A stretch of 60,417 nucleotides of DNA, filler included. It is 4 parts of 4 records of this genome, joined end to end, with 100 filler letters (N's around TTAATTAATTAA, not from the genome) between each part and the next. Parts side by side here need not be neighbours in the genome. Positions count along the whole stretch, not along the records: positions 20,917 to 35,446 come from DRR723986_6430; 3 more parts are not named here. One strand, 5' to 3'. Position 1 is the stretch's first letter. The number at the start of each line of letters is the position of its first letter. Position numbers and translations under genes: made by a program. The notes beneath the pieces were generated by a model. It saw nothing but the letters and a program-made list of their open reading frames with translations, ran no database searches and was not told where the DNA came from. This document shows positions 9,612-35,546 of the stretch, in pieces.

Positions 9612-9683
9612 GTGGTGGTTTTGGACTGCTCCGGGGAGCCCCGACGTCGTATACCTTCTACAACCCAACGCTGGAGCTTTACC

Positions 9684-10979: not shown

Positions 10980-10987
10980 GCCCGCGC

Positions 10988-11872: not shown

Positions 11873-11899
11873 TAGCCAATCCTCGTCTTTACCTGCAGT

Positions 11900-11925
11900 T
11901 TACGCCTTGGGGGTGATTCGGATCA
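11900..11925 (-). promoter_or_regulatory. Putative sigmaE(ChrR)-type promoter TGATCC-N15-CGTAA
   Basis: Minus strand TGATCC gaatcacccccaagg CGTAA, 27 bp upstream of TIGR01777. Confidence 0.65.
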
Positions 11926-11974
11926 GCCTGGCCCCGGGGAATCCCCCACGCGGCTGCCACCGTATAATCCCCTG

Positions 11975-12850
11975 ATGAACGCCCTTCCCGACCCACGCGA
12001 CAGCCACCGCCTACTCGACTTTTTCGAGCGCCACCGGCGTGTGGTCGTGCTGACCGGAGCTGGCGTCAGTGTCCAATCCGGCATACCGACCTACCGCGAT
12101 CACCAGGGCAGCTGGCTGCGCTCAGACCCTATCCAACACCAGGCTTTTGTCAGCCAGTCTGCAGCCAGGCAGCGCTATTGGGGTCGCTCGATGATCGGCT
12201 GGCCCGGGGTACGGGATGCGCGCCCCAATGACGCCCACCGGGCGCTGGCCCGCCTCGAGGCGCTGGGCAGGATCGAACTGCTCATAACCCAGAATGTCGA
12301 TCGTTTGCATCAGCGGGCCGGGAGCAGTGCGGTCGTCGACCTGCACGGTCGCCTGGACCGCGTAATCTGTCTCGCTTGCGGTGATGGGAACGCGCGGGAG
12401 AACATGCAACACCGGCTCGAGCGCAGCAACCCGCAGTTGCTCAGCCACCCTTCCCTGCCCAGACCGGACGGCGATGCCGACCTTGAAGAAGCGCTGGTTG
12501 CGACTATCCGCGTTCCTGATTGTCAGCTCTGCAGCGGCACGCTGATGCCTGACGTGGTGTTTTTCGGCGGCTCCGTACCCCGGGACCGGGTCGATCACTG
12601 CCTCGCCGCGATTGAGCGTGCCGACGCCCTGCTGGTCGTCGGCAGCTCCCTGAAGGTCTACTCTGGTTACCGCTTCTGCCGCAAGGCGGCGGCGTGCGGC
12701 CGGCCGATCGCTATCGTGAATCCGGGTATCACCCGGGCCGACGAACTGGCGACGGTGAAACTGCGTGCCGACTGCGGGCCACTCCTGGCCCAGGCCGCCG
12801 AGACGCTGGCCAGCGGCAGCAACTCAAGCGCCCCCGGCACGCACGTCTGA
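11975..12850 (+). CDS. NAD-dependent deacylase, sirtuin (SIRT4-like class II)
   Basis: 'LTGAGVSVQSGIPTYR', 'YWGRSMIGW', 'ITQNVDRLH', 'DLHG', two CxxC, 'RPDGDAD', 'GSSL'. Confidence 0.93.
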   Translation: MNALPDPRDSHRLLDFFERHRRVVVLTGAGVSVQSGIPTYRDHQGSWLRSDPIQHQAFVSQSAARQRYWGRSMIGWPGVRDARPNDAHRALARLEALGRIELLITQNVDRLHQRAGSSAVVDLHGRLDRVICLACGDGNARENMQHRLERSNPQLLSHPSLPRPDGDADLEEALVATIRVPDCQLCSGTLMPDVVFFGGSVPRDRVDHCLAAIERADALLVVGSSLKVYSGYRFCRKAAACGRPIAIVNPGITRADELATVKLRADCGPLLAQAAETLASGSNSSAPGTHV

Positions 12851-20684: not shown

Positions 20685-20758
20685 TGGAGGCTCGGGTCGG
20701 AATCGAACCGGCGTAGACGGATTTGCAATCCGCTGCATGACCACTCTGCCACCGAGCC
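20685..20758 (-). tRNA. tRNA-Cys(GCA)
   Basis: GGCTCGGTGGCAGAGTGG...GCGGA-TTGCAAA-TCCGT...GGTTCGATTCC...GAGCCTCCA. Confidence 0.97.
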
Positions 20759-20787
20759 AAATCGAGTAAGAACTACTCCTGAGAACT

Positions 20788-20816
20788 TGGAGCGGGAAAC
20801 CGGGTTCGAACCGGCG
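20788..20816 (-). tRNA. tRNA 3' portion, probably tRNA-Gly (partial)
   Basis: CGCCGGTTCGAACCCGGTTTCCCGCTCCA; Gly-type acceptor, Gly-Cys order is common; anticodon not visible. Confidence 0.75.
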
Positions 20817-20916
20817 NNNNNNNNNNNNNNNNNNNNNNNNNNNNNNNNNNNNNNNNNNNNTTAATTAATTAANNNNNNNNNNNNNNNNNNNNNNNNNNNN
20901 NNNNNNNNNNNNNNNN
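20817..20916. other. Artificial contig linker (N44-TTAATTAATTAA-N44)
   Basis: N runs with all-frame stop linker; gene content changes across it. Confidence 0.98.
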
Positions 20917-21555
20917 GGTGTTCTTGGTCGACAGGTAGACCGGCCACTTGCGCTGCAGGCCATAGTTCATGCTGGCGCGGGCGAAGTCACGGATCGACTC
21001 GTCGAGGTTATACATGCCCATCGCGATGCCGGAGCTCGGGAAGTCGAATACTTCGAATTCCTTTGAGTCGGAGCCATCTTCAGCTTCCCACTTCATGGTC
21101 AGCTTGCCTTTGCCCGGCACGAGGAAGTCGGTGGCCTTGTACTGGTCGCCGAAAGCGTGACGGCCAACAACGACCGGCTTCGTCCAGCCCGGCACGAGGC
21201 GCGGAATGTTCGAGATCACGATCGGCTCGCGGAACACAACGCCGCCGAGGATGTTTCGGATCGTGCCGTTCGGCGAGCGCCACATCTTCTTCAGGCCGAA
21301 TTCTTCCACACGGGCTTCGTCCGGCGTGATCGTCGCGCACTTCACAGCCACGCCGTATTGCTTGGTGGCGTTGGCGGCGTCGATGGTGATCTGGTCGTCG
21401 GTTTCGTCGCGCTTCTGGATCGACAGGTCGTAATACTTCAGGTCGACGTCCAGGTAGGGGTGGATCAGCTTGTCCTTGATAAGCTGCCAGATGATGCGGG
21501 TCATTTCGTCCCCGTCCATCTCGACGATCGGGTTCTTGACCTTGATTTTCGCCAT
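20917..21555 (-). CDS. icd: NADP-dependent isocitrate dehydrogenase (3' truncated)
   Basis: '[13 protein letters not shown]', '[15 protein letters not shown]', '[12 protein letters not shown]'. Confidence 0.97.
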
Positions 21556-21632
21556 ATTTGGAAGTCCTTGCGCTTGTAATTGTCTGGCAGGCCTATAGCA
21601 GAGCCCGGGCAGGCGTCAAAACAGGTTACGAC

Positions 21633-22394
21633 ATGGCAGATCACCGCAGCCCGGCCATCATTCTCCACTCGCCCCAATTGGGTGAAAATATCGGCGCCGC
21701 TGCCCGTGTCATGCGCAACTTTGGTCTGACGGATCTGCGCCTTGTGACGCCCCGCGACGGCTGGCCGAATCCCGCTGCGGACACAATGTCGGCCGGTGCC
21801 TTTGAGGCGGGCGTGACGGTGTCTGTGCATGAAACACTACAGGATGCGCTGGAAGGTATCACCTGGCTCGCCGCCGCGACGGCGCGGCTGCGGGGCATCG
21901 AGAAGCGGGTGGGAGATGCGCAGGATGCGGCCGAGGTCGCGCACCAGCGGCTCGGCACCGGGAAATCGGCCATCATGTTCGGGGCGGAGAAGTCCGGTCT
22001 GCCGAATGATGCCGTGGCGGTCTCCGATTTCCTGATGACCTATCCGGTCGATGTGGATTTCAAGAGCCTGAACCTCGCGCAGGCCGTCTGCGTGTTCTGC
22101 GCGGAGTGGGGGAAACTGGCCATCGGGCCGCGCGCTGACGAGGGGGACAACAAGGCCGGTCTCGGTGACCTCGCCCCGCGTGACGAGCTTTACCGCATGT
22201 TCGAGCACTTTGAGGAAGAGCTTGAAAGAGCAGGATATTTCTTCCCGCCGGAGAAGACGCCGCTGATGAAGGACAATCTCCGCGCTGCGCTGATCCGGGC
22301 GGACTGGACGCGGCAGGAAGTGCAGACGTTCCGTGGCGCGATCAAGGCACTGGCGCTCGGCCGGGGCAAGGCGCGGGTGATCCGTGACGACTGA
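21633..22394 (+). CDS. trmJ: TrmJ/LasT-family SPOUT RNA methyltransferase
   Basis: 'PQLGENIGAAARVMRNFG', 'FGAEKSGL', 'SLNLAQAV'. Confidence 0.88.
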   Translation: MADHRSPAIILHSPQLGENIGAAARVMRNFGLTDLRLVTPRDGWPNPAADTMSAGAFEAGVTVSVHETLQDALEGITWLAAATARLRGIEKRVGDAQDAAEVAHQRLGTGKSAIMFGAEKSGLPNDAVAVSDFLMTYPVDVDFKSLNLAQAVCVFCAEWGKLAIGPRADEGDNKAGLGDLAPRDELYRMFEHFEEELERAGYFFPPEKTPLMKDNLRAALIRADWTRQEVQTFRGAIKALALGRGKARVIRDD

Positions 22395-23619
22395 CCCGAA
22401 GACTGGCCGGGTCGCAGTCGTCGGCTCCGGCCCGGCCGGCCTGATGGCCGCTGAAATGTTGTCGGAAACGGGTGTCGGCGTGGACGTCTTTGAGGCGATG
22501 CCGAGCGCGGGGCGCAAATTCCTGATGGCCGGGAAAAGCGGACTGAACATATCCCATGCCGGATCATCGCATGACTTCCTCGTGCGATACCATGACTATA
22601 TCGGACTATTCGCTGACCATATCAGAGCTTTCGGACCGGACGAGGTGACCCGCTGGATGGAAGGCCTCGGCATGCTGGCGCATGTCGGCCCAACGGGGCG
22701 AATCTTCCCGCAGTCTATGAAGGCTTCTCCGCTACTCCGCGCCTGGCTGACGCGGCTGGCAGACAAGGGCGTAAGACTTCATCTGAAACACCGCTGGACG
22801 GGCTGGGCGCCTGACGGCGCGCTCGCCTTCGGCACGCCGGAGGGAGGCGTGACGGTTACACCTGCCGCGACAGTGTTCGCGCTCGGCGGCGGCAGCTGGC
22901 GGCGGCTGGGATCGGATGGCGCGTGGGCCAGCCTGTTCGATCAGGCGGGAATCGAAGTGGCGCCATTCCGGCCCTCCAATTGCGGGTTCACGGTCGACTG
23001 GTCGGAGCGGATGCGGGCGCAGTTTGCCGGCGCGCCGGTGAAGGGCGTGCAGCTTGTCGCAGCCGGGCAGGCAACGCGTGAGGAATTTGCGATCACGGCG
23101 CGCGGTGTGGAGAGCGGGGGCGTCTACACGCTTTCCGCCGTGCTTCGCGATGAGATCGAAGCGGCCGGCAGCGCGACGCTGTGGCTGGACTTGCTGCCGG
23201 ACCTGGACGTGGCGGAGATTGCGCGGCGGCTCGCGGCGGCCCCGGCAAAGCAGTCGTTTTCCAACCGGCTCCGCAAGGCGGTCAAGATCACAGGCGTGAA
23301 AGCGGCCCTGTTGTTCGAATGTGAGGCGCGGGATGCGCTAAACGATCCAGCGCGCGCGGCCGAGGCGATCAAGTCGCTGCCGCTTAAGCTGACGGGGACG
23401 GTGCCGCTCGATGAGGCGATTTCGACGGCGGGCGGTGTTGCGTGGACCGCGCTGGACGAGAGACTGATGCTGAAAGCGAAGCCCGGCCATTTCTGCGCGG
23501 GCGAGATGATCGCATGGGATGCGCCGACGGGCGGCTACCTGATCACGGCCTGCATGGCGACGGGCCGGGCGGCCGGACGCGGCGTGCTTGATTGGCTCGC
23601 ACGCCGCGCCGCGGACTAG
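22384..23619 (+). CDS. HI0933/BaiN-like flavoprotein (TIGR03862 family)
   Basis: 'GSGPAGLMAA', 'GRKFLMAGKSGLN', 'AISTAGGV', 'WDAPTGGYLITAC'. Confidence 0.9.
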   Translation: MTTDPKTGRVAVVGSGPAGLMAAEMLSETGVGVDVFEAMPSAGRKFLMAGKSGLNISHAGSSHDFLVRYHDYIGLFADHIRAFGPDEVTRWMEGLGMLAHVGPTGRIFPQSMKASPLLRAWLTRLADKGVRLHLKHRWTGWAPDGALAFGTPEGGVTVTPAATVFALGGGSWRRLGSDGAWASLFDQAGIEVAPFRPSNCGFTVDWSERMRAQFAGAPVKGVQLVAAGQATREEFAITARGVESGGVYTLSAVLRDEIEAAGSATLWLDLLPDLDVAEIARRLAAAPAKQSFSNRLRKAVKITGVKAALLFECEARDALNDPARAAEAIKSLPLKLTGTVPLDEAISTAGGVAWTALDERLMLKAKPGHFCAGEMIAWDAPTGGYLITACMATGRAAGRGVLDWLARRAAD

Positions 23620-23625
23620 TCCGGA

Positions 23626-24390
23626 TTACTTGCCCTTCCAGACGGGGGCGCGTTTTTCGATGAAGGCTTTCGGGCCTTCCTTGAAATCTTCCGTGCCGAC
23701 GATGCTGGCGAAGGCCTTGCCGCTGTCCTTCCAGAGTTCTTCGTCGGTCTTGCTGGTAGCCTCGATCGCGACCGAACGGCTGGCAGCGACGGCGAGCGGT
23801 GCATTGGCCGTGATGCGGGCGGCGAGCTTTTCAGCTTCGGCCATCACTTCGGCTTCCGGGGCAACCTTGTTGACCATGCCGAGCTCATAAGCGCGCTGGG
23901 CCGGCAGCGGATCGCCGGTGAGGATGACTTCGAGTGCCATCGACTTGCCGATAACGCGCGGCAGGCGGAACAGGCCGCCGGCGCCGGCGACGAGCGAGCG
24001 CTTCACTTCCGGCAGACCGAAATTCGTATCGTCCGCGCAAATGATCATGTCGCAGGAAAGGGCGACTTCCGTGCCGCCTGCGAGGGCCGAGCCGGTGATC
24101 GCGGCAATCAGCGGCTTGGTACGCTCGCGCCTTGCGATGCCTGCAAACCCGCCTTTCTTGGTGGAAAGGGCGGCGCCATTGCCAGCCGAGATTTCTTTCA
24201 GGTCGGCACCCGCGCAGAAGGCCTTGCCGACGGCGGTAAGAATGCCCACCCACACTTCCGGGTCGGATTCCATCTGGTCGAGCGCGGCCTCCATCGTCTG
24301 GGCCATTTCGCCATTGATGGCGTTGCGGGCTTCCGGTCGGTTCATCGTGATGATGGCGACGTTACCCTTTTTCTCATATTCGACTGGCAT
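23626..24390 (-). CDS. Enoyl-CoA hydratase / crotonase family
   Basis: 'NRPEARNAI', 'FCAGADLKE', 'ALAGGTE', 'FGLPEV'. Confidence 0.95.
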   Translation of the reverse strand: MPVEYEKKGNVAIITMNRPEARNAINGEMAQTMEAALDQMESDPEVWVGILTAVGKAFCAGADLKEISAGNGAALSTKKGGFAGIARRERTKPLIAAITGSALAGGTEVALSCDMIICADDTNFGLPEVKRSLVAGAGGLFRLPRVIGKSMALEVILTGDPLPAQRAYELGMVNKVAPEAEVMAEAEKLAARITANAPLAVAASRSVAIEATSKTDEELWKDSGKAFASIVGTEDFKEGPKAFIEKRAPVWKGK

Positions 24391-24469
24391 TTGATTTCCT
24401 CCTTAGGGGTTCTTTTCCAAGAGCTAGAAGCGTTTCCCCGACGTCGCGCAAGCACGGTTTTGGCGGGCT

Positions 24470-25036
24470 TTATTGCGTTTCCCGCGGCTCGGTCGTCAGC
24501 GTGAATTGAAGGTGGGCGTTGTAGAGCGGCGGTTCGCCATACTGCATGACGCTCATGTCCGCCCCGATCGCGTCTTCCGGGCGCGTCTTGCCTTCGGCTT
24601 TCAGAAATGCCCGGAAATTGCCTTTTCCGACATGGCCATAGCTGCTCCAATGCTCCCTCGCTGCGAGGCAGCTGGAGATATCGTGAAAGCGGGCGAACTC
24701 GTTCTGGCCGAAAGCCGCACGGCTTTCCTGGGTGATGGGACCGACATCGGATTCGTTCATTCCGCAGGTAAGAACCGAGCTGGTCCGGCCCGCATCGTCG
24801 ACCTTGTCCTGGACGGTGCATTTGGAAAAGAGGCCCAGCAGAGGTTTGGCCGGATAGATATTGTCGTTTCGCAGCTTACCATTCCGCGGCTTGAACAGGT
24901 CTTCCCACGACACGTCCTGCTGGCCGGACACGATCAACGCATCAACAGAGTCGCAAAGCGCTTCATCCGCGGCAGCGGGTGTCGCTAGGACGAGAAGGCA
25001 GGCGAGGCCTGCGAGCGGGGACCGGATTGTGGACAT
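24470..25036 (-). CDS. Hypothetical secreted protein
   Basis: Signal peptide ending AAA-D, four Cys in the mature part. Confidence 0.65.
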   Translation of the reverse strand: MSTIRSPLAGLACLLVLATPAAADEALCDSVDALIVSGQQDVSWEDLFKPRNGKLRNDNIYPAKPLLGLFSKCTVQDKVDDAGRTSSVLTCGMNESDVGPITQESRAAFGQNEFARFHDISSCLAAREHWSSYGHVGKGNFRAFLKAEGKTRPEDAIGADMSVMQYGEPPLYNAHLQFTLTTEPRETQ

Positions 25037-25182
25037 GTAGGGAATCTCCTCTGGACGCGTTCAGGCTAGAGCGTCCGATCGAAGCGGTCACCCCCGGAAT
25101 GGGGACGTCGCGGCGAGCCTTCCCCAACGTCGCGCGCGCAAGCCTCTTGCCGAACCTTGGGGCAAGAGTTTGTAATGGCGAG

Positions 25183-26376
25183 ATGGAACTGAATCTGAGC
25201 CCCGAATACGAAGCCTTCCGGCAGGACGTGAACCGTATCCTGACGGAAAATTTTCATCTTGCCCCCGGGCCGGAAGACAGAGGGATGAAACATCCCAAGC
25301 GTCTCGCCTGGCAGAAATTCCTGATCGAGAACGGGCTGACAGCCCGGACCATCCCGAAGGAATATGGCGGCTATGGCGCCGAGCCCGATCTGTTGAAGTC
25401 CCGCATCATCGCGGAAGAGTTCGCGCGTACCGGCATCGCACGCCCCATGGGCGGGCAGGGTATCTCCATGCTGGTGCCGACCCTGCTGGAACTCGGCACG
25501 CCAGAGCAGAAGGAAGCCTACATTCGCCCAACGCTGTATGGTGAGATGATCTGGTGCCAGGGCTATTCCGAGCCGGGCGCAGGATCGGACCTTGCTGCGG
25601 TGCGCACGGCGGCAGTGGAAGACGGCGACGATTTCATCATCAACGGCCAGAAAATCTGGACCTCGACGGCCAAACAGGCCGACATGATTTTCTGCCTTGT
25701 GAGGACTGACCCTGACGCGAAGAAGCACGAGGGCATCAGCTATGTCCTGTTCTCCATGGAGACGCCGGGCATTGAAGTGCGTCCGCTGGTCGACATGACG
25801 GAGAACGCGAACTTCAACGAAGTGTTCTTTACCGATGTCCGCGTGCCGCAGAGCGGGATTGTGTTCGAGAAGAACAAGGGCTGGCAGGTGGCAAACGCCA
25901 CGCTGACGCATGAGCGCGGCATGCTGGGTGACCCGAACGCCACCAAGGCGCGTTTCCTTGAACTCGTCGAACTGATGAAGGCCGAGACGCTGAATGGCGA
26001 ACGTCTGATCGACAACCCGTTGCTGCGCGACCGGCTGATCAAGCTGCAAGGTGAAGTCTATGCGATGCAGGCCAATGGCCTGCGCGTGACGACCGCCAGC
26101 CTGAAGCGCGAGAGCGCGGGGCTCGCGGGTCTGATCGTCAAGCTGCAGGGCTGTGAACTGAATCACCAGATCGCGGGCCTCGCCATCGACGCGCTGGGCG
26201 AGCTCGGCATTCTTTATGGCGAGGGAGATCATCTGAGAGCGGATGGGTCCTGGCAGTGGCGCTACATGTATGACCTCGGCCTGATCATTGGCGGCGGCAC
26301 GGCGCAGATCCAGAAGAACATCATTTCCGAACGTGGCCTTGGCATGCCGCGCGAACCGAAACCGGCGAAGGTTTAA
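25183..26376 (+). CDS. Acyl-CoA dehydrogenase family protein
   Basis: 'WCQGYSEPGAGSDLA', 'NGQKIWTS', 'FNEVFF', 'IGGGTAQIQKNII'. Confidence 0.95.
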   Translation: MELNLSPEYEAFRQDVNRILTENFHLAPGPEDRGMKHPKRLAWQKFLIENGLTARTIPKEYGGYGAEPDLLKSRIIAEEFARTGIARPMGGQGISMLVPTLLELGTPEQKEAYIRPTLYGEMIWCQGYSEPGAGSDLAAVRTAAVEDGDDFIINGQKIWTSTAKQADMIFCLVRTDPDAKKHEGISYVLFSMETPGIEVRPLVDMTENANFNEVFFTDVRVPQSGIVFEKNKGWQVANATLTHERGMLGDPNATKARFLELVELMKAETLNGERLIDNPLLRDRLIKLQGEVYAMQANGLRVTTASLKRESAGLAGLIVKLQGCELNHQIAGLAIDALGELGILYGEGDHLRADGSWQWRYMYDLGLIIGGGTAQIQKNIISERGLGMPREPKPAKV

Positions 26377-26379
26377 GTC

Positions 26380-27426
26380 ATGGAATTCGCACTCTCAGAA
26401 GATCAGCGCATGCTGCAGGATTCGATCAGCGGATTCCTGAAGGACAATGCGTCCCTCGATAGGATCCGCAAGATCGCCGATGGCGATGCGCAGGCGAAAG
26501 CCGGACTGGATGCCGGCCTCGCGGAAATGGGCATTATGGGCCTGCACGTGCCAGAGGCGATGGGCGGTTCCGGTCTCGGCTTGCTGGAAGCCTGCCTTGT
26601 GCAGGAAGCGTTGGGCTACACTGTCGCGCCTTCCGGCTTTCTTGCAGCGACGGTCGCGGCGGATCTGCTGCCGAACTATCAGGAAGATTATCCGCGCGGT
26701 ATTGCGGACGGGGAGATGGTGTTCGGCCTTGCACTCACCGAGCTCTCCTCGCGCCGGGATGGCGCCGGTGTGACAGCTGAAAATGGCCGCCTGAATGGCA
26801 CCAGCCTGCTCGCCGACGTGCCAGATGGGGCGACCCATGTCCTCGTCGCAGACACGAGCGGCAGTTTCCATGTCGCGGACGACTGGTCAGCCGAATCTAT
26901 GCGTACGATTGACCGGATACGTACGTTCCGGGAACTCGCGTTCGACGGCGTCGCTGCGGAAGCCAGTACACAGCCCGACCCGTCAGCGCTGGCGGTCGCC
27001 CGTCTTCTAATCGCCGCGGATACGCTGGGCGCGGCTCAGGCGATGATCGACAAGGCGGTGGAGTACGCGAAAGAGCGCAAGCAGTTCGGCCGCGTCATCG
27101 GTTCGTTCCAGGCGGTGAAGCATCTCTGCGCCGAAATGGCAGCAAAGCTGGAGCCTGCACGGGCGCTCGTCTGGCACGCGGCCTATGCGATGGACACGAA
27201 TGACCCGGAAGCGCTGGTGATGGCGAACCTCGCTAAGGCGCACATCGCTGAGGTCGGCACGTTCGTCGCGAAGACGGCGACCGAAGTGCATGGCGGTATG
27301 GGCTTCACGGACCTCTTGGGCCTGCACTACTGGTTCAAGCGCATTGGTGTGAACCGGCAACTGTTCGGCAGCCCGGAGCAGGTGCGTCAGACCGCGGCAG
27401 AGCTGCAGGGCCTGGTCGCCGCCTGA
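26380..27426 (+). CDS. Acyl-CoA dehydrogenase family protein (short partner subunit)
   Basis: 'YAKERKQFGRVIGSFQAVKH', 'VHGGMGFT'; adjacent pair typical of heteromeric ACADs. Confidence 0.93.
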   Translation: MEFALSEDQRMLQDSISGFLKDNASLDRIRKIADGDAQAKAGLDAGLAEMGIMGLHVPEAMGGSGLGLLEACLVQEALGYTVAPSGFLAATVAADLLPNYQEDYPRGIADGEMVFGLALTELSSRRDGAGVTAENGRLNGTSLLADVPDGATHVLVADTSGSFHVADDWSAESMRTIDRIRTFRELAFDGVAAEASTQPDPSALAVARLLIAADTLGAAQAMIDKAVEYAKERKQFGRVIGSFQAVKHLCAEMAAKLEPARALVWHAAYAMDTNDPEALVMANLAKAHIAEVGTFVAKTATEVHGGMGFTDLLGLHYWFKRIGVNRQLFGSPEQVRQTAAELQGLVAA

Positions 27427-27506
27427 TCAGGCGCACTCCGTAAGGCCTGGCGGCGCAGGACCGTATCCGGTTCCGCCCGCAGGGCCTGCACGGGACATTG
27501 CCGTAA

Positions 27507-27845
27507 GCAAAGACGGTCTTCCGCGTCCAGCAATCCGCGGAGCCAACCGAGCACGCTGACGCAGCGCTCCAGCTGGCGCGAACGTTCCGGGAAGGACAGA
27601 TTCAGGCGCGTCTGCGGCCCTTCTGGTCGCGGGCCTTCAAGTGCCGGCTCCTACCCGGGCGAGGGCCGTTCTGGTTTTCCGACTATGAGTACCGCGAAAT
27701 CGAGATCCTCGTGCCGGAACATCCCGAAGCCCTGCCGATTGTGGCAGACCCCTATGTCATTATCCGTCCTGAGGGTACCAGGGGCATTCCCGGCATGCTG
27801 GATGCCTCAGCCGAACGCGGTCCGGGAGAGGACGAGGCGGCGTAA
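27507..27845 (+). pseudogene. Possible start-less ORF remnant
   Basis: About 112 open codons '...GPFWFSDYEYREIEILVPEHPEALP...EDEAA*' with no upstream start; ends just before the att-like site. Confidence 0.3.
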
Positions 27846-27862
27846 CGAATTGTTCTGGGAAA

Positions 27863-27879
27863 TGGTGCCCGGGGGCGGA
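27863..27879 (-). other. att-like core: isolated 3' end of a tRNA-Leu
   Basis: Minus strand TCCGCCCCCGGGCACCA with no remaining tRNA body; lies at the switch from core to accessory genes. Confidence 0.75.
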
Positions 27880-27937
27880 GCGACTTAGGGAGTGGTGTCC
27901 CGAGAAAACCCAATAGATTCAGGTGTTCGCAAGGACG

Positions 27938-28002
27938 TGAGTACACTGATACACCGGCCTTGGCAAGCGCTGGTGTATCACTTGGTGGGCTCTGAGTGTA
28001 TC
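27938..28002. repeat. GTGTATCA motif cluster 1
   Basis: TGAGTACAC-TGATACACC (27938-55), TGGTGTATCA (27971-80), AGTGTATC (27995-28002). Confidence 0.8.
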
Positions 28003-28109
28003 GCTTTGCTTATCGCGTGCGCTTGCTTTCCGTTGCTATCCATTCAAGCTTGAGCCTTCAGACATGCGCTTCTAGATTGAGTGCGGTTTAGCTGAAGGGG
28101 ACCGGAACA

Positions 28110-28415
28110 ATGCAGAAGTCCAGCAATATGAAGCGGATGTTAGCGGGGAGTGCTTTGATTGCTCTCACGGGATGCGTTGCCGCGTGGGGCGGTTCGTACA
28201 ACGTGGCGGCGGCGAACAGTCGGTCGGTGGTGATCGAATACGATCCTGTCGTGGTGAATATGCCCGCGCTCTTGCAAGCCGCGCAATCAGCGTGTGATGA
28301 GTATGGCAAGGACGCGGTGCTGGACCGTACCGACAAAGGAAATCTTGGAATTCGCGTGAACACCTACAGGTGCGAAACCAGAGAAGCGGATACGGTCGTT
28401 GACGTCCAAGGCTAA
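28110..28415 (+). CDS. Small lipoprotein, hypothetical
   Basis: Lipobox LTGC, two further Cys. Confidence 0.75.
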   Translation: MQKSSNMKRMLAGSALIALTGCVAAWGGSYNVAAANSRSVVIEYDPVVVNMPALLQAAQSACDEYGKDAVLDRTDKGNLGIRVNTYRCETREADTVVDVQG

Positions 28416-29331
28416 GACTGTCGCCCGCGCAGCTCGCAGGAAACTTGCTAAACTGAAAGCGGCAATGGTTATTCGCTGGGCGCTGGTCTGTGCCTTCGTG
28501 TTGGTCGTCTTTACGGGGTGGTACGCTTGGGATCGCTTCAATGCCTACCAGGCGCAGCACTTAGCGGAGCGAGAGAGAGTCAGTGAGAGTCAGTCGTATC
28601 TCTACGATCTGAAAGCGCAGCAGGACATCGCCGAGTGGTCGTATTCGATGCTTGGCGTGGGAGTCGTAGGCTTCCTTGCGAGTATTGTCGGGATTGGGTT
28701 CGTCTACGAGAACCTACGTCAGATGCGTCGTCAGACACTTGTCACAAGAGAGGTGGGTGAGAAGCAAACTCGTGCATACGTTTTCGCTAGTAGTGCAAGT
28801 GTAGAGGTTCCAGAATCCGAGGGAATTTCACTGCTCGCAAGGCTACCTACATTCATATTCGTAACCGTTGAAAACACAGGCAGCACTCCGGCAACAATTC
28901 TTGCTGGAAAAGCCACGCTGAAGATTGAAACAGGCCTGGCGAATGAACGAATAGTTTCTGCGGAATTGGAACAAGACTCTTCCATCGACGCGCTCATCAC
29001 CGACCATCCACAAAGAATGCGTTTCATTATCCCGCGCGACCACTTCGATATTGAAGAGAAGGCTACCGCTCAAAATGCGTTTGCAAAGATTCAACAGCCG
29101 CAGGCAAAACCAAGTCCCGAGAATGCCTTTGGTCTTTTGAGTGTTTCCGCAAAGATCAAAAAGGTGACGTGCCGTGGAGCGATCACTTACTTTGATGTCT
29201 TCGGTGATCAATTCTCCACCGAATTCCACTTCGAATTCTTCGGATTCCCGAAACAGGGAGCGGTGAACATGCAACCGATTTGGAGCGGCCTTCACATGTT
29301 CAAGAAAGTCAAAGATCGAGAATCCGAGTAG
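28399..29331 (+). CDS. Hypothetical two-TM membrane protein
   Basis: Two TM segments, then 'QTRAYV', 'ENTGSTPA', 'ITYFDVFG' beta domain; start uncertain. Confidence 0.7.
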   Translation: MTSKAKTVARAARRKLAKLKAAMVIRWALVCAFVLVVFTGWYAWDRFNAYQAQHLAERERVSESQSYLYDLKAQQDIAEWSYSMLGVGVVGFLASIVGIGFVYENLRQMRRQTLVTREVGEKQTRAYVFASSASVEVPESEGISLLARLPTFIFVTVENTGSTPATILAGKATLKIETGLANERIVSAELEQDSSIDALITDHPQRMRFIIPRDHFDIEEKATAQNAFAKIQQPQAKPSPENAFGLLSVSAKIKKVTCRGAITYFDVFGDQFSTEFHFEFFGFPKQGAVNMQPIWSGLHMFKKVKDRESE

Positions 29332-29422
29332 GTGGTGCCCTGACCCGGCATCGATATTGGCGAGCGTATTCCTAACAACCACGGGCGATTGCGTCTCTGT
29401 AGCGCGTGCCTGGGGCCGCTGA

Positions 29423-29446
29423 GTGATACACCAGTGATACACTTGG
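29423..29446 (-). repeat. GTGTATCA motif cluster 2 (tandem, 11-bp period)
   Basis: GTGATACACCA-GTGATACACTTGG. Confidence 0.85.
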
Positions 29447-29504
29447 CGGACGGCCAGCGTTCTGGTTGTATGGCAATCTACTTAACGAATGCTGGGGACC
29501 GGAC

Positions 29505-29915
29505 ATGTTGAAGACTTGCGCACTATTGATCGCAGCAGCGCTGGGGGCCGCTTCGGCGACAGCAGACCCTTGCGAAGCGCCGCTGCCCTCCAAGGCGGGG
29601 ACAGTATTCACCGGAACCGTTCAATACATCGTTGATGGTGATGGCATCTGCGTGGGGACTTCCGCTGATGAGAACACTTGGATTGAAGTGCGCTTGGTAG
29701 ACTTCAATGCACCTGAGTTGAGCACTTCCGATGGCGCCTTCGCCAAGAAGGAAATGGAGAAGCTGGCGATGGGGAAGCAGGCTGAATGCGTAACGACGCC
29801 GGGACGAGCCGGGCGGACGACTTCATGGGATCGCGTACATGCTAGCTGCATGATCAACGGCGCCAGCTTGGCACGCCTTCTGCGTGAGGCAGGCGTCCCC
29901 GAGGGCGGGAACTAA
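29505..29915 (+). CDS. Secreted thermonuclease (SNase-like) protein
   Basis: Signal peptide, 'IVDGDGICV', 'VRLVDFNAPEL', 'DRVHASC'. Confidence 0.8.
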   Translation: MLKTCALLIAAALGAASATADPCEAPLPSKAGTVFTGTVQYIVDGDGICVGTSADENTWIEVRLVDFNAPELSTSDGAFAKKEMEKLAMGKQAECVTTPGRAGRTTSWDRVHASCMINGASLARLLREAGVPEGGN

Positions 29916-30181
29916 ACCCACAGGCATTTGAGGTGACGCTGCAAAAGTCCTCGTATTTGGAGACCGAGACCAAGACCCCCGGTAATTGGAGACACACTCC
30001 ACCCGCAGCGGACCAGAGACCCGCTCGCCCCCAGCCCACAACCGCATTGGCTTTTTTGTGATAGCCTGACGCCCCCCTCATCAATGCGTTGTGACCAGAC
30101 ACCAGCCCCACGCCAGTTCACCTTGATAGTGACACCCCCCGCAGACCGATCCGCTAAACCTTGGTTGAGACACCGAGAACA

Positions 30182-30426
30182 GGAACGGGCCTGAGGGGGG
30201 CGAGGCGTGTGCCCCCTCAGGGTTGGTTATCACCATAGATAACCTAACCCCTAGGGTCTAACGCTATGTCTTCTCAAAGTAAGCACACTGAGTTTTCCTT
30301 GTAGGTGTTTCTTTGAGTGAACATAGCGTTCCACCCAGCGTGTATCCCTAGTGTTTGGTTGCCTTGCCGTGGCAACCGTTACCAGTGTCCCGGCTTAGGG
30401 CCGACCCTGAGTAGGCCTAGTGTTCC
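30182..30426. other. Multi-hairpin structured non-coding element
   Basis: Four consecutive inverted repeats plus two enclosing stems (see findings). Confidence 0.6.
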
Positions 30427-31089
30427 GTCCACGTGTTCCATCCATGTGACCCGGCGCCAAGGAAGCCGCAGAGAAGGCCAAGGACAAGGTCTTTGAGAAG
30501 CTGCTGAAGAAGCACATAGCCGAGCAGATAAGCGCGTCAGAGAGCCTCTCAGCGTCCCGCAAGAGGAAGCGCAGGGACGGCTTTATGCTGGGTTGATTTT
30601 ATTGGGGAAATCAAAACGCCCCGTAACCGGAGAGAGTGACCAAGCCCCCACCCCCGGTCCAACCTACCAGTGTTACTCTAAGTGTTACCTTATGTAGACT
30701 TCAAGTCAGTACGCTTGGTGGCCTCAGAGTGGACACTGGGCATGGGGATACCCAATCCCCCAATACACTATGACCTCCCCTGGGTGGACCCTGAGGCAGG
30801 CTTAGGGCCGTCTCCGTGTACGGTGGTATCCAACCACCACCCCATCAATGTCCTAGCCCAGTGACTAGCTCGGGCAACACTCGCGTGTGCTCCCGTGTGA
30901 GCAGCACCGCAGCAATGAACACCTCTCTACAGAACAGCCTAGGAGCGCCCCAGAGAGCCGCCGTGAGCGTGGCAAGGCGATGGGTCCAACGCTCCACAGA
31001 AGCCGCCCAGCGGCGCTCCTAGGCCTTCCCTGAGTCCTTCACGGGCTCGGCCCATCACCCATCGCATCCCAATCAAGGAAACCCATCCC

Positions 31090-31338
31090 ATGTCTACCCG
31101 TGTCCCCACCCGTTCCGTGGGCAGAGGGCGTAGCACCCGTGTGCTGCCCGCAGCCTACCGGAAGGAACAACAGGTGTTGAACCAGAGTGCCCGCAACAAT
31201 GCCTGGAAGGCTGGCGCCGTCGCCTCCGCTGTCACTGGCAAGCTACTGAGGCAGTTCACACCGCCGCCCATGCAAACCCGTGCCCATGCCTACAGCCGCT
31301 ACCTCATCAACAATGGTTGGAGGCCGTACCAGCAATGA
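31090..31338 (+). CDS. Hypothetical basic protein
   Basis: AAGGA RBS; ATGA overlap with the next ORF. Confidence 0.6.
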   Translation: MSTRVPTRSVGRGRSTRVLPAAYRKEQQVLNQSARNNAWKAGAVASAVTGKLLRQFTPPPMQTRAHAYSRYLINNGWRPYQQ

Positions 31339-31547
31339 GCGATCTCAACAAACCACCCCACCTGCGTGCTCCCATGATCAACGTGGATGTGCCCAGCGAT
31401 GCAGTGGAATTCATTGGTGTGAACAACGCCAACAAGCCGCGCGCAGAGAAGGCCCCTAGGCCGGTCGTTGAGTTGTCCTATAGCGACGATAACGACGCCC
31501 TTACAGGCGAGTTCAGCAAACACCACAGCCACGTCTACGGACGATAG
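31335..31547 (+). CDS. Hypothetical protein
   Basis: ATGA translational coupling. Confidence 0.5.
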   Translation: MSDLNKPPHLRAPMINVDVPSDAVEFIGVNNANKPRAEKAPRPVVELSYSDDNDALTGEFSKHHSHVYGR

Positions 31548-31603
31548 CGCATCCCCCAACAATCCATCACCCATCCCAATCCTGACAAAGGAAACCCATC
31601 TCC

Positions 31604-32071
31604 ATGACCAAGAAATCAAACACCGCCGCCGACGTGGAATTGCGGGCTGACCGTACCCCCGGCTCAGAGGCAAAGGCCCCCAGACTGACCATCGCCGCTA
31701 CCGAAGCCGCGAATGAAACGCTTTACCTTGGGAAGCTCACCTCTACAGAGGGCCGTGTGGCCTACCTCCGCATCTGGCAGGCGGGCTACCGCATCCTGTT
31801 CCAGAACCGCTCCGGCACATGGAAGCCCGACGGCTTTGGTGACACCCACTCCGCTGCCATCGGCAACCGGGATCACGTGTTCAACTGTTTGGAAGCCGTA
31901 GGGTTCACCCCAGACGACTACTCAAAGGCAATCATTGCCAACCTCCCACGTAATCCGGTTGTGGCCTACGGCGCCATCGTTGGCTCCCGTGCACCGCTGA
32001 GGTATATCCCCGCTGACCTTGCCCTAGCGCGTGAGGCCGTCCCCGGCCAAAACTTGATCCGGGGCTACTGA
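31604..32071 (+). CDS. Hypothetical protein
   Basis: AAGGA RBS, 155 aa globular-looking ORF. Confidence 0.7.
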   Translation: MTKKSNTAADVELRADRTPGSEAKAPRLTIAATEAANETLYLGKLTSTEGRVAYLRIWQAGYRILFQNRSGTWKPDGFGDTHSAAIGNRDHVFNCLEAVGFTPDDYSKAIIANLPRNPVVAYGAIVGSRAPLRYIPADLALAREAVPGQNLIRGY

Positions 32072-32072
32072 T

Positions 32073-32384
32073 ATGCCCGGCAACACAGATCACAGCCGCA
32101 GCCCATCGAAGCCCACCAAAGTGTGCAGCGCTTGCGGCAAGGCCTTCCCAGCAACGCGGGCGTGGTTCTTTGAGGACAAGTCACAACCCGATGGCCTCAG
32201 CTATAGGTGTTTCTCATGTACGCTCCGTGGGAAGCCCGCAGCGGACAAGCTCCCAAGCAATATTCCCCCAGAGGACAAACCAAAGAAACGCCGCAGGGGC
32301 TGCCGGGGTGGACGCAACTACAACCGCGCTGCCAAGGCCGCCGCTCGTGCCGCTGCCGCCACGAACACCAATCACCAGACATAG
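32073..32384 (+). CDS. C4 zinc-finger protein with basic tail
   Basis: 'KVCSACG...F..DKSQPDGL.YRCFSC' as seen at the N-terminus of phage HNH/endoVII proteins; tail 'KKRRRGCRGGR'. Confidence 0.7.
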   Translation: MPGNTDHSRSPSKPTKVCSACGKAFPATRAWFFEDKSQPDGLSYRCFSCTLRGKPAADKLPSNIPPEDKPKKRRRGCRGGRNYNRAAKAAARAAAATNTNHQT

Positions 32385-32751
32385 GTTGGCTCTGTGAGAC
32401 TCTAGGAAGCCCGTGAAAGGTACGGCGAGCTTCCTTGAGTCCTCACCTAGGCAAATCCCTCAGATGCCCACCAGACGGACTCTGTGGCTCTCCAAGCAGG
32501 GCTCCCTGAGGGATGGGTGTAACCGGTGGGGCAGATCGAAATATGCAGCAAAAATTCGTGGCCCTTTAATAAGGGGTCGCCGCCACCCGTTCCCCCCGTG
32601 GGGGGCCTCTGTTTCGTCCTTGATCAGAGGCCCTTTCGGGGCGCCATGGGGCCTCGGCACCACACGTCATGCCGCAGACGCGCGGGGATTGCCCGTCAGC
32701 ATTGGGTGTTGCTCTGGATTGTGAGTCTAGGGACGCCTCCAGGAAGCGCTC

Positions 32752-32772
32752 AGTGTACCTCTGGTGTATCAC
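32752..32772 (+). repeat. GTGTATCA motif cluster 3 (tandem, 11-bp period)
   Basis: AGTGTACCTC-TGGTGTATCAC. Confidence 0.75.
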
Positions 32773-33104
32773 TTTGGGCTGATGGCACCGTGCTGGCACC
32801 GTACCGTTCCGCTCCAATCTGTAGCAGCCACGAGCGATGTAGCCCCGCGATGCCTGGGCAACGCTGTTCCTGAGGAAGGCACCCACCGACGCGCGATGCC
32901 GAGAGGAGTTCGCTATGGTTTTCGCACGCGCGTGTGATGCACTGTCGTTTTCATCACCAACAGATCGCCCACTCAGAAGACGTTCGGAGACGCATTCACA
33001 GCGGATTGGCGGTTTATGCCTCATTAACCGTTGGCGCCCATACGAATTGGACGAAATGATTCGTGTGGGGCGAAATGTAAAGAATCTGACGTCGAGGTGA
33101 TAAC

Positions 33105-33338
33105 ATGCTTACGGGCAACGAACTAAAGTCAATTCGAGAGCAAACTCTAAAGTGGACCCAAGCGGATTTAGCGCGGGAACTCGGTGTATCCCGACCCACA
33201 ATATCGTCGTGGGAAAAGTTAGGCGATCTCTATCTCAGTCGCACGGCGGACTTGGCGATGCAGGCGTTGATCCGGTTGCCGGATACGCGCGGGTGGGGGA
33301 ATGACGGGAAGAATACCTACGGGGAGCTGGACGAGTGA
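33105..33338 (+). CDS. XRE/Cro-family HTH regulator
   Basis: 'ELKSIREQTLKWTQADLARELGVSRPTISSWEK'; GAGG RBS. Confidence 0.9.
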   Translation: MLTGNELKSIREQTLKWTQADLARELGVSRPTISSWEKLGDLYLSRTADLAMQALIRLPDTRGWGNDGKNTYGELDE

Positions 33339-33565
33339 TTGGTCTCGTACTTTTGCCCCTCGCAATTGTGCTGATCATGGTGTTAGCGCCAGTGGCGTTC
33401 TTATCCTTGAAGTCCCCAGCACATCCGGTGAAGATCGATACACGCGGTCTCAAGTATGATGGCCCGGTAGTGGCATTGTTGCCAGTTCTGTTTTGTCGCG
33501 GACTGATCTTCGTGGGCGTTTACGTTCTTTGGGCGGCATCACCTCTTGCCGGGCTATGGAGTTAG
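33335..33565 (+). CDS. Small two-TM membrane protein
   Basis: GTGA overlap with the HTH gene; two hydrophobic helices. Confidence 0.55.
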   Translation: MIGLVLLPLAIVLIMVLAPVAFLSLKSPAHPVKIDTRGLKYDGPVVALLPVLFCRGLIFVGVYVLWAASPLAGLWS

Positions 33566-33586
33566 TTCCGTTGCGATTGATCGCAT

Positions 33587-35086
33587 CTACACCCATTCCT
33601 CTGGCGTGTAGATGTAATCGGGGGCTTCACCGAGCCGCTCAAAGGCCAACTCCATGGCTGCCTTGAGTTCTCCCATGTCCACGCCGCCAGCTCCGTACAC
33701 CGCATTCACGGCGCCCTCAGTGTGGCCTAGGAGCGAATAGCGTAGGTGTTGCCTGGCATCGCTCACCAGCATGGCTTGGTTCACAGTGTGCCGGAAGGAA
33801 TACACCACCAGGCGGCGCTCCTTGGGAATGCCTGCGGTCCTCAAAGCCTTGTTAGCTCGGTTGGATAGCTTGGTGGTGTCGTGGAAGTTCTCAGGGAACA
33901 GCGGTGTGCTGGGCATTGATGCACCGTCCACCAGTGCCTTCACCTCAGAGAGCGCAGAGCCGACGATGGGTACACGCCTCTCACTGCCTTTGGTCTTGAG
34001 CCCGCGAATTACGTTGGCCTTGATACGCAGGTACGGCGTGGGCACGTCCAACACTACATCGCTCCGCAGCAACCCGCCAATCTCCAGCGGCCTTGCGCCT
34101 GTGTACATCAGCAGGCGGAGAAAGGCCCGCATGTACCGGTCAGTGTCATTGCGCATGAAGTACGCGTTGAGAAGGTCCAAGTGGCCCCGAGTGAATGGGA
34201 GGCGCTTCTGTGATGCAACCTTCTCCGCATCAACCGCTGCCCGGGGCGGTCCCTGACGTGCCCACGGGTTTTTGTTCCTGAGCGTCTCGTCTTCAAAGTG
34301 ATCCGATGCCCAGTTCCACAATGCCTTGAGTGGGCCAACACGCCGTCGGATTGTCTCAGCGCCGTTGCCGCGAACAGTGTGGAGGTAGTCAACGAACTCA
34401 CGTGCCAACGCCCTGTTGATCTCATTGAGTGGCAACAAGCGCGGGTCGCCTTTCGTTTTCTTGCTGAGTGTGGGGTGTGCGGTGATCCATTCCTCAAAGC
34501 GAGGCCAGGTGGCCGCCTCTGCCTTGTCCTCAGTGCCGCCCCAGTAGTGCTTCAGGCGTTCGTCTATGGCGCGACCTAGGGTCAACGCTGCGGGGACTTT
34601 GCTGCCGCGTTTCACCGTCTCAATCCGCACACGCAACTCATCGTGAAGTTCGTGTAGTTCGGGATCGCGCTGAAGCTTCTGGCGGTAGGGCGCCAACTCG
34701 CTGTCTAGCCACCGGTCGTAGTCGCTATCCATCGCGGGGCTATCATACATCCCATGCTCATCAGGCCCGGTGCCATCGTCGTAGCGTCCCTGTGGGTCAG
34801 TCCCGATGTACTTGTTGCGCAGCGCCCATTGTTCCATGCGCTCCGCCATCGCGTGCGGGTCTTCTCCGGCACGGAATGCTTTCTCGGCCTTTAGGAACTC
34901 GGGATCGTAATGGCGGTCTAGCTTCTCCACCTCCAGCAACGCGCGTGCCTTTTGGTCAGCGCTCAGCCCCAAAGACTTCACGATCTCGCTTTTGCCGTTG
35001 AAGTACGGGCGGAGGTGGGCAGGAACCTTGCGGCGATAGCGGAGTTTGCCGTTCCGGTTCTGTAGTCGATTGATGGTCATGCGCAT
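33587..35086 (-). CDS. Tyrosine recombinase/integrase with N-terminal DUF6538-like domain
   Basis: N-term 'YRRKVPAHLR...EIVKSLG'; catalytic 'TGARPLEI', 'LKT...RRVP', 'YSFRH', 'LLGH', 'VYG'. Confidence 0.93.
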   Translation of the reverse strand: MRMTINRLQNRNGKLRYRRKVPAHLRPYFNGKSEIVKSLGLSADQKARALLEVEKLDRHYDPEFLKAEKAFRAGEDPHAMAERMEQWALRNKYIGTDPQGRYDDGTGPDEHGMYDSPAMDSDYDRWLDSELAPYRQKLQRDPELHELHDELRVRIETVKRGSKVPAALTLGRAIDERLKHYWGGTEDKAEAATWPRFEEWITAHPTLSKKTKGDPRLLPLNEINRALAREFVDYLHTVRGNGAETIRRRVGPLKALWNWASDHFEDETLRNKNPWARQGPPRAAVDAEKVASQKRLPFTRGHLDLLNAYFMRNDTDRYMRAFLRLLMYTGARPLEIGGLLRSDVVLDVPTPYLRIKANVIRGLKTKGSERRVPIVGSALSEVKALVDGASMPSTPLFPENFHDTTKLSNRANKALRTAGIPKERRLVVYSFRHTVNQAMLVSDARQHLRYSLLGHTEGAVNAVYGAGGVDMGELKAAMELAFERLGEAPDYIYTPEEWV

Positions 35087-35108
35087 GGAGGTACCTCCAG
35101 AGTCACTA

Positions 35109-35158
35109 AGAAAGAACCCCCACGGCTGCGCTGGGCAGAACCCGGAGCCGTGAGGGCT
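35109..35158 (-). terminator. Hairpin plus U-rich tract upstream of the integrase (possible terminator/attenuator)
   Basis: Minus strand AGCCCTCACGGCT...AGCCGTGGGGGTT followed by CTTTCTT. Confidence 0.5.
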
Positions 35159-35179
35159 GAGAGTGTGTGAAGGTGGCCT

Positions 35180-35410
35180 CTAGCGGCGTGCCATCTCGTG
35201 ACGGGTCACCCGCATTTCGCCTTCAATCCGGAACAGCCGTTCGGCGTTCGCTTCCTCACGCTCTGTGAGCTTGGCTTGAGCGTGGGCGAGGCGTTCCAGG
35301 CGCCACTCAGTGAACCCCTGAGCGACCCACAGGAAGGCGCGGTAAACGCCCAACCCGATGGAGCGAGTCGTGGAGGTCTTACCGGTGGTGGCGATGGTCT
35401 GGTGTATCAT
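35180..35410 (-). CDS. Hypothetical small coiled-coil protein upstream of the integrase
   Basis: GGAG RBS, ATG at 35410, 76 aa. Confidence 0.6.
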   Translation of the reverse strand: MIHQTIATTGKTSTTRSIGLGVYRAFLWVAQGFTEWRLERLAHAQAKLTEREEANAERLFRIEGEMRVTRHEMARR

Positions 35411-35432
35411 TGGTGTATCTCCAAGTGTATCA
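35400..35432 (+). repeat. GTGTATCA motif cluster 4 (triple tandem, 11-12 bp period)
   Basis: TGGTGTATCA-T-TGGTGTATCT-CC-AAGTGTATCA overlapping the RBS and start of the ORF above. Confidence 0.88.
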
Positions 35433-35446
35433 GTGTTGGCGCGCAA

Positions 35447-35546
35447 NNNNNNNNNNNNNNNNNNNNNNNNNNNNNNNNNNNNNNNNNNNNTTAATTAATT
35501 AANNNNNNNNNNNNNNNNNNNNNNNNNNNNNNNNNNNNNNNNNNNN
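35447..35546. other. Artificial contig linker
   Basis: N44-TTAATTAATTAA-N44. Confidence 0.98.

Follow-up and report, generated by a model that had tools for sequence, protein, structure and literature searches.

The presence of two similar units at one locus, each consisting of a tRNA-end-like core and nearby copies of the repeat TGATACAC, raises the question of whether a recombinase assembles gene cassettes there or whether both units are parts of a single genomic island. The units lie in a window of 60,417 nucleotides (the whole stretch of DNA that was analysed, filler included), in which separate contigs follow one another with N...TTAATTAATTAA...N spacers between them and along which all coordinates are counted; the contig that carries them spans 20917-35447 and stops inside the island. 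A preliminary description of the window had proposed that core, TGATACAC repeats and a GGGGACCGGA leader form a three-part module opening an exported-protein gene, that two such modules stand at a tRNA-Leu attachment (att) site, and that they were either left behind by repeated integration or built into an integron-like array by a nearby recombinase with a DUF6538 domain. Our analysis places the element in a broad kind, the tRNA-targeting tyrosine-integrase islands. With some reservation, we favor the reading that it is a composite island in which a built-in second attL-like integrase-binding site, at 29333, bounds two cargo bays (V1 and V2).

Comparisons were made against a small set of related loci. 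L001 is a locus from a 234-kb metagenome contig, with an integrase 96% identical to that of the window (protein) and an int-orfX block 93% identical (DNA); L001 and L004 were counted as one lineage. The integrase of L002 is 64% identical to the window's, that of L052 (a Hyphomonas metagenome-assembled genome) 68% and that of L033 (a tRNA-Thr element) 40%. Four tRNA-Phe lineages were compared, namely the window, L001/L004, L002 and L052. Logan contigs from the sequencing runs X1, X5, X6 and X23 were also used; the runs contain at most 0.24 of the sampled words, stretches without cover count as no evidence, and the listed contig joints leave out 87 loose ends. A single-sequence scan of genome contigs with the integrase returned 0 relatives, whereas alignment-based scans did find relatives, and none were found among viral contigs. 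Within 262 genomes of the family, 5 carry a related integrase (E <= 1e-40).

An island in the 3' end of tRNA-Phe

The outer core at 27863-27879 is the reverse complement of the last 17 nucleotides of tRNA-Phe(GAA) in L001, L002 and L052, and in all three of these close relatives, which are the ones covering that side, tRNA-Phe(GAA) lies directly upstream of the integrase gene (int). The tRNA in L001 ends 45 bp ahead of the point where homology to the window's contig end starts, and tRNA-Phe, the far-end repeat and the TTTCC after the repeat are all the same in L002 and L052. An empty site was recovered from a related genome (G111/L102), where the flank is joined directly to the core and the rest of an intact tRNA-Phe. 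Contigs of X1 and X6 continue from 27879 into ATCGAACCAC, the tRNA T-arm, as loose ends of an unoccupied site. A tRNA-Leu target was considered and rejected because the 17-mer is the 3' end of tRNA-Phe(GAA) in reverse complement; the 3'-end identity in relatives and the empty site thus replace the tRNA-Leu of the preliminary description with tRNA-Phe(GAA). Results demonstrate that 27863-27879 is the true distal end of an integrative island in the tRNA-Phe(GAA) 3' end. The left edge of the island is at 27879/27880, and its roughly 7.6 kb run from 27880 past the contig end at 35447. ARAGORN and Rfam searches of the window detected only a tRNA-Cys, in another contig, and no tRNA-Leu. A more distant group of elements (L010-L013, one strain) does occupy tRNA-Leu(CAA), in the opposite orientation. 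At 35447 the contig breaks off within the att region, about 45 bp away from the position expected for tRNA-Phe.

The surroundings of the outer core were less constant. The flank at 27599-27836 is replaced in L001, skipped in the X1 and X6 contigs and different in G111; the tRNA-Phe flank is itself a variable spot. On the island side, the stretch 27897-27930 appears by eye, unscored, to be an imperfect inverted repeat of the block beside the tRNA-proximal core in L001, L002 and L052. A search of the 262 family genomes for integrase-less outer-end remnants gave 47 genomes matching a 174-nt query, 46 of them by the tRNA end or flank only, and the outer arm block was present in a single genome (G001).

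Candidate arm sites of the integrase

Integrases of lambda-type systems bind both core-type and arm-type sites, the arms lying at fixed distances on both sides of the core. The repeat TGATACAC matched 8 times in the window against 0.81 expected, a count reached by 0 of 100 shuffles. Seven of the matches fall in the island (27947, 27973, 29424, 29435, 32764, 35402 and 35425) and the eighth (39452) in another contig; the clusters mark both island ends and the inner site. The six motif occurrences of the preliminary description were all recovered with their coordinates and distances, TGATACAC following 84 bp after 27863 and 91 bp after 29333 with a repetition at 29435, and the sequences between the motifs proved as unrelated as it had stated. 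Measured start to start in integrase orientation, the core-nearest outer arm (27948-27954) lies 85 bp from GGCACC in 3 of 3 lineages scored (window, L002 and L052; L001 was excluded for a 1-nt change in its outer core). The proximal cluster holds three direct copies 66-89 bp after the tRNA core and overlaps the start of a 76-residue open reading frame (ORF). This three-cluster layout (proximal; outer +,+,-; inner direct pair) is alike in 4 of 4 tRNA-Phe lineages. By analogy with lambda-type attachment sites, we infer that the TGATACAC repeats are arm-type integrase sites. The integrase itself retains R332, K364, R432, H455 and Y464 in all 16 homologues compared, residues that we take to be the catalytic set of tyrosine recombinases. 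A literature search on DUF6538 found no paper.

The inner site

The inner core begins with TGGTGCCC at 29333, and a single base separates it from the TAG stop codon at 29329-29331. Read in the tRNA sense it is GATGCC-GGGTCAG-GGCACC-A, a palindromic arrangement of two inverted half-sites around 7 nucleotides. It matches the tRNA-Phe 3' end (GATTCC-GCCCCCG-GGCACC-A) at 16 of 21 positions and the central 7 nucleotides of the tRNA core at 3 of 7; it is not a copy of the 17-mer even with 3 mismatches allowed.

Such a short core invites the explanation that the unit at 29333 is a chance resemblance, and TGGTGCCC alone does occur at the chance rate (3 against 3.40 expected, with 70 of 100 shuffles reaching 3). 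The palindromic pattern GAT[GT]CC-N7-GGCACC, in contrast, has a single occurrence in the window, compared with 0.03 in 200 shuffles, and one per relative besides the tRNA itself. The inner unit stands at the equivalent place in L001/L004, L002, L052 and L033, in keeping with the conserved unit that had been proposed, and looser versions are found in L054 and L055 (tRNA-Thr) and in L013 (tRNA-Leu). An arm pair with GGCACC within 130 bp was present in 10 of 94 loci and in 0 of 20 shuffles. Chance resemblance is effectively refuted by these results.

Comparison of the inner site among the window, L002, L052 and L033 gave pairwise identities of 0.76 for the arms and 0.76 for the core, against 0.35 for the spacer and 0.22-0.27 for the flanks. 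Core and arms are therefore conserved across integrases that are only 40-70% identical, and the spacer is not. The two inner arms are always 11 bp apart, at distances from the core of 92/103, 101/112, 112/123 and 113/124. The central 7 nucleotides change with the lineage (GGGTCAG, GGGTCAC, GGACTAC, GGGCTAG and TTCCTCC; the tRNA has GCCCCCG) and never match the target tRNA. A partner site combining the inner core's 7-mer with the half-sites was also sought, and no second one was present in any locus. Crossover sites of tyrosine recombinases usually share their central stretch, the overlap-identity rule; under this rule the 3/7 central match makes recombination between the inner and tRNA cores unlikely. 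Since the inner site keeps its half-sites and phased arms in every lineage examined while its central 7 nucleotides drift, we read the stretch 29333-29442 as an integrase-binding site that would be kept by selection and would not be a regular crossover partner of the tRNA core.

The likeness of the inner site to a degenerate tRNA 3' end would also suit a functionless relic of an old tandem integration, in which accretion was followed by decay, and tandem integration at tRNA genes with later decay is common according to one source (PMC5704250). Several results argue against a relic. The divide between arms and core on one side and spacer on the other persists across the distantly related integrases, and the site recurs in the tRNA-Thr elements (L033, L054 and L055) and the tRNA-Leu element (L013), where it is unlike their target. 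In 4 of 4 lineages no tRNA-proximal arm remnant follows the inner core inside V1, the best short match having an E of 0.17. The same absence goes against repeated integration leaving end-plus-cargo units, since such a remnant would be expected after the inner core. We consider a relic rather improbable.

In four relatives (L052 6344, L033 3338, L055 5879 and L054 11562) the interval from int to the inner arm pair contains a conserved non-coding motif, CAAAAATCTGAGCGCC followed some 20-40 nt on by TTTCCCCCCG; the motif is absent in the window, L001 and L002. Scans of 27700-30100 were uninformative, yielding 0 promoter sites against 1.2 expected and one terminator-like site (29443-29457) against 2.6 expected.

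Cargo exchange beside fixed sites

Alignment of the window with L001 showed conserved patches interrupted by three bays, V1 (28003-29332), V2 (29445-29988) and V3 (32884-33586), that have no homology to L001; V1 is also replaced in L004. The outer core-spacer-arm block stays put, being 94% identical in L001 and about 68-76% in L002 and L052. As this block is fixed while V1 changes, the mobile unit is not core plus arms plus cargo. The contigs from sequencing runs displayed further combinations. In X1, 28002 is joined to 29334 across 1422 other letters that replace V1. In X5, V1 and the inner site are about 97% identical and divergence sets in after 29449, with a loose end of only 62 letters. 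X23 keeps V1 and V2 (about 90-93%) and has a different V3, 634 extra letters after 29914 and another allele of 31618-32116. Variable number, order and cargo had been foreseen for such units: cargo beside both units does differ between near-identical elements, whereas number and order are fixed in 4 of 4 lineages.

These observations bear on the proposal that the DUF6538 recombinase inserts cassettes of core, arm and gene successively at the tRNA-distal end, in the manner of an integron. The two units share one orientation, each stands ahead of outward-reading genes, cargo varies between relatives, and a homologue of the V2 nuclease-like gene (76% identical) sits in the outer bay of L002, among other genes, rather than in the inner bay as in the window. 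Homology to the L002 gene is, however, confined to the coding part. Every one of the four lineages has one inner and one outer unit with the cargo alone swapped, which does not fit an integron-like array, and no arrays were found in 401 genomes of the order; the inner-unit pattern appears in 2 of those genomes, once each (one being the genome of L052), and a reversed-pattern control gave 1 hit. The outer core-arm block remains unmoved while cargo changes, and the arm layouts of the two units differ (outer unit: +,+,-, 85 bp; inner unit: two direct repeats, 92/103 bp). The integrase scored 23.4 bits against a cut-off of 220 in the XerA/integron-integrase model. No attC-like local palindrome at 27863-28003 or 29333-29450 was among the 25 longest inverted repeats in 27400-35447 (no folding was run). 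Taken with the fixed layout, these results make a cassette array very unlikely.

The GGGGACCGGA leader likewise fell outside the units. Exact copies of this 10-mer number 3 in the window against 0.14 expected; two of them, at 28097 (before ATG 28110) and 29494 (before ATG 29505), open cargo genes, and the third, at 25017, lies within a minus-strand ORF. It is absent from all related islands, and the nuclease homologue in L002 has a different leader. Of the proposed three-part module, both core-plus-TGATACAC units are real, but the leader belongs to the variable part and to no conserved unit. That two unrelated cargo genes share exact GGGGACCGGA (28097-28106 and 29494-29503) 1-3 bases ahead of ATG is a separate observation.

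The positions of the breakpoints give a further indication of how cargo is replaced. Breakpoints adjoin the arm clusters (28002 and 29444-29449), and divergence of the inner block tracks the type of V1, identity being about 97% in X5, which has the same V1, and 76% in L001 and about 81% in X1, which have another V1. Both features fit ordinary recombination between related islands. A comparable switch was observed in two TARA contigs, L003 and L013, which are 99% identical over a 6.1-kb flank that includes the proximal arm repeats. The integrase gene after the arms is 65% identical between them (aligned again from about 135 bp on), and the switch beside the arms indicates different island variants at one tRNA-Leu(CAA) site.

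A third core-plus-arm unit, inverted, was found only in the window and L001/L004. Its core lies 114 and 125 bp from its arms and matches the loose core pattern, and homology to L001 ends at 32883, exactly at its edge. This unit and the inner site enclose the 3.5-kb backbone in the manner of inverted ends.

Proposed reading: a composite island with a built-in inner site

Based on these results, we propose the following arrangement. The core would consist of two half-sites, GATTCC and GGCACC, on either side of the 7 bp in which crossover would take place (GCCCCCG). These 7 bp are common to the outer core and the tRNA core, which are taken as the sites of integration and excision; recombination between the two would presumably move the island as one piece. 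V1 and V2 would be bounded by the inner site and the outer arms, with a third bay, V3, following int. The role of the inner site may be architectural, or it may regulate the adjacent cargo or serve as an occasional alternative end. The most likely means of replacing bay content would be ordinary recombination between related islands, for which the short conserved patches of arms and cores would serve as anchors, and not cassette insertion.

The inner site could, alternatively, be a working recombination site, used either for excision of the backbone alone (inner core with tRNA core) or for exchange of V1 between islands. This is a serious possibility, though a decidedly less probable one. A recombination site requires half-sites and phased arms, and the inner site has both. 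In the window, L001, L002, L052 and the X1 contig alike, the first base of V1 is the one that follows ...GGCACCA. V1 and V2 vary independently of each other across X1, X5 and X23, and the degree to which the inner block diverges goes with the type of V1. Precedents exist in composite islands (PMC5704250) and in an island of Streptomyces (PMC4057263). The central 7 nucleotides, matching the tRNA core at 3 of 7 and differing in every lineage, oppose such a use, and neither the backbone alone nor V1 alone was found beside the tRNA in the 262 family genomes or the listed contig joints.

Several considerations weigh against a built-in binding site that takes no regular part in crossover. Some tyrosine recombinases, those of conjugative transposons, tolerate unlike overlaps, and given this tolerance the 7-nt mismatch may be compatible with crossover at the inner site. 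In three places, one of them the inverted third unit, the outer edge of a GGCACC half-site is the exact point at which variable DNA sets in, a pattern that suits site-specific capture as well. The assignments of arm sites and of the N7 crossover rest on the analogy with lambda-type systems, and the inner arm-to-core distances, which fall on steps of about 10.5 bp in only three distinct classes, lend weak support to helical phasing. The island's tRNA copy and right end are beyond the contig break, outside the window. Close relatives are few (the window, L001/L004 as one lineage, L002 and L052), and the Logan contigs are short, one of them possibly deriving from the window's own sample.

A bolder idea follows from the tolerance of unlike overlaps. 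Islands with a DUF6538 integrase might carry a dedicated internal docking site at which an overlap-tolerant integrase captures or swaps DNA beyond the GGCACC edge. Although we consider this doubtful, it would account for the onset of variable DNA precisely at the edge of the core at three sites. If true, it would amount to a two- or three-bay cargo-exchange device distinct from both integrons and simple accretion.

Other features of the island and window

The features of the island and the conserved patches shared with L001 are collected in the table. No Pfam, NCBIfam, PHROG or PADLOC family was found for the V1 proteins. The V2 protein matched phrog_452 endonuclease (E 3.7e-4) and an EcnA model (E 0.043); its fold model has a pLDDT of 60, and the best fold matches are to staphylococcal nuclease (SNase; E 4e-3 or weaker, TM about 0.4), which is only a hint that the protein may be SNase-like. 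PADLOC on the window's cargo returned nothing but a weak helix-turn-helix (HTH) match. In L052, the outer bay (6560-12150) holds four genes assigned by PADLOC and Pfam (Type II methylase, PRTase-CE/PRTase_III-A, ORC-CDC6-like and 'CARF6'), a candidate anti-phage system as judged from these family assignments.

No family match was obtained for the 76-residue ORF. Iteron-like direct repeats of about 23 nt, in three copies (29942-29993 and 30612-30634), occur in an ORF-poor stretch (29989-30795) that is 85% conserved in L001, and similar repeats follow int in L052; the region could be an origin or a regulator-binding region. An X1 contig joins 32900 to 34015 by 33 other letters, V3 and the 3' part of int being gone, and this copy is a decayed island.

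Spacers with TTAATTAATTAA are located at 20861, 35491 and 50172, in the stretches 20818-20916, 35448-35546 and 50172-50183. In 21000-27500 the G+C content is 0.58-0.70, higher than the roughly 0.42-0.52 before 20800 and after 35550, and this contrast between neighbouring contigs points to a binned assembly. The stretch 20685-20817 carries the tRNA-Cys, on the minus strand, and after it what seems to be the beginning of a second tRNA, truncated where the first contig stops.

Table 1. Features of the tRNA-Phe island in window coordinates and segments aligned with L001
Feature	Position	Strand	Remarks
Chromosomal flank, 3' gene fragment	27600..27846	+	81 codons, no start; full 210-aa homologue flanks the island in L002
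Outer (distal) att core	27863..27879	-	17-nt direct repeat of the tRNA-Phe(GAA) 3' end; TGGTGCCCGGGGGCGGA at 27863
Conserved block between outer core and arms	27897..27930	.	About 34 bp; by eye
Outer arm-type repeats (putative)	27948..28002	.	GATACAC 27948-27954 (+), GTGTATC 27973-27979, GTGTATC 27996-28002
Cargo bay V1	28003..29332	+	Lipoprotein gene and membrane-protein gene; no recombinase
V1 lipoprotein gene	28110-28415	+	LTGC lipobox
V1 membrane-protein gene	28399-29331	+	Start possibly ATG 28466
Inner core	29333..29354	-	GGTGCC 29334-29339, N7 CTGACCC 29340-29346, GGCATC 29347-29352
Inner arm pair (putative)	29425..29442	+	Two GATACAC repeats 11 bp apart; 92 and 103 bp from core
Cargo bay V2	29445..29988	+	Exported, possibly SNase-like protein 29505-29915
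Island backbone	29989..32883	+	85-89% identical to L001; non-coding stretch, then ORFs 31604-32071 and 32073-32384
Third core-plus-arm unit, inverted	32753..32883	.	GTGTACC 32753-32759, GTGTATC 32764-32770, TGTTCC-N7-GGCACC 32865-32883
Cargo bay V3	32884..33586	+	HTH regulator 33105-33338; small membrane protein 33335-33565
Tyrosine integrase, 499 aa	33587..35086	-	N-terminal DUF6538; PF00589 E 5e-8; PF20172 E 1.7e-7
Small conserved ORF upstream of int, 76 aa	35180..35410	-	Start codon among proximal arms; conserved in L001
Proximal arm repeats (putative)	35402..35431	-	Three GTGTATC, 11-12 bp apart
Segment aligned with L001	35446-33587		93% identity
Segment aligned with L001	32883-30795		89% identity
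Segment aligned with L001	30732-29989		85% identity
Segment aligned with L001	29444-29333		76% identity
Segment aligned with L001	28002-27837		94% identity
Segment aligned with L001	27598-27011		91% identity

Comparison with known systems

Integrons combine an IntI-type integrase with a variable-length array of cassettes that end in attC-like imperfect palindromes. The present island resembles them in having a tyrosine recombinase and variable gene loads beside recombination-site-like sequences, and differs in having no IntI-type integrase, no variable-length array and no site blocks that travel with the cargo. The att sites of lambda and P4-type elements are closer, in that short repeats flank the core at fixed distances and integration duplicates a core situated in a tRNA 3' end. 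Unlike these elements, the island carries an extra core-plus-arm unit inside, with a third, inverted one in this lineage, and the N-terminal domain of its integrase is DUF6538.

Composite islands that arise by site-specific accretion of integrative and conjugative or mobilizable elements (ICE/IME) with cis-mobilizable elements (CIME), such as ICESt1 and ICESt3 of Streptococcus thermophilus, offer a near parallel (PMC5704250). They also comprise a tyrosine-integrase element at a gene 3' end, one internal att-like and two end sites, and an integrase-less segment between the internal and outer sites (here V1, with two genes). Such a composite moves as a whole, and by its sequence the present island may do likewise. 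The same core is described at all three sites of these composites, whereas here half-sites are shared and the central 7 nucleotides match at 3 of 7. The island also lacks a chimeric internal junction with remains of proximal arms, and its internal site is conserved across the integrase family, elements in other tRNAs included. This conservation makes the internal site look built in rather than left by recent accretion.

Experiments on PAISt of Streptomyces turgidiscabies are reported to have shown modular excision by way of an internal repeat and a repeat on each flank (PMC4057263). The division of the island into modules by an internal site and two outer ones is shared, as is a tyrosine recombinase gene at one end; the three PAISt sites are an identical 8-bp palindrome, in contrast to the differing inner core here, and our island is known from sequence alone.

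Defence and niche genes are commonly carried on small tRNA islands, and the V1 bay of L052 holds defence-type genes. A family-wide internal integrase-binding site that marks cargo turnover would be a defined, testable feature of island modularity, and would give a first functional handle on the DUF6538 domain. Should the inner site prove to be a crossover site, it would represent a second, integron-independent exchange of cargo by a tyrosine recombinase. Set beside these systems, the island is a variation on known genomic islands and not a new cassette system, its unusual trait being an inner site conserved across the integrase family.

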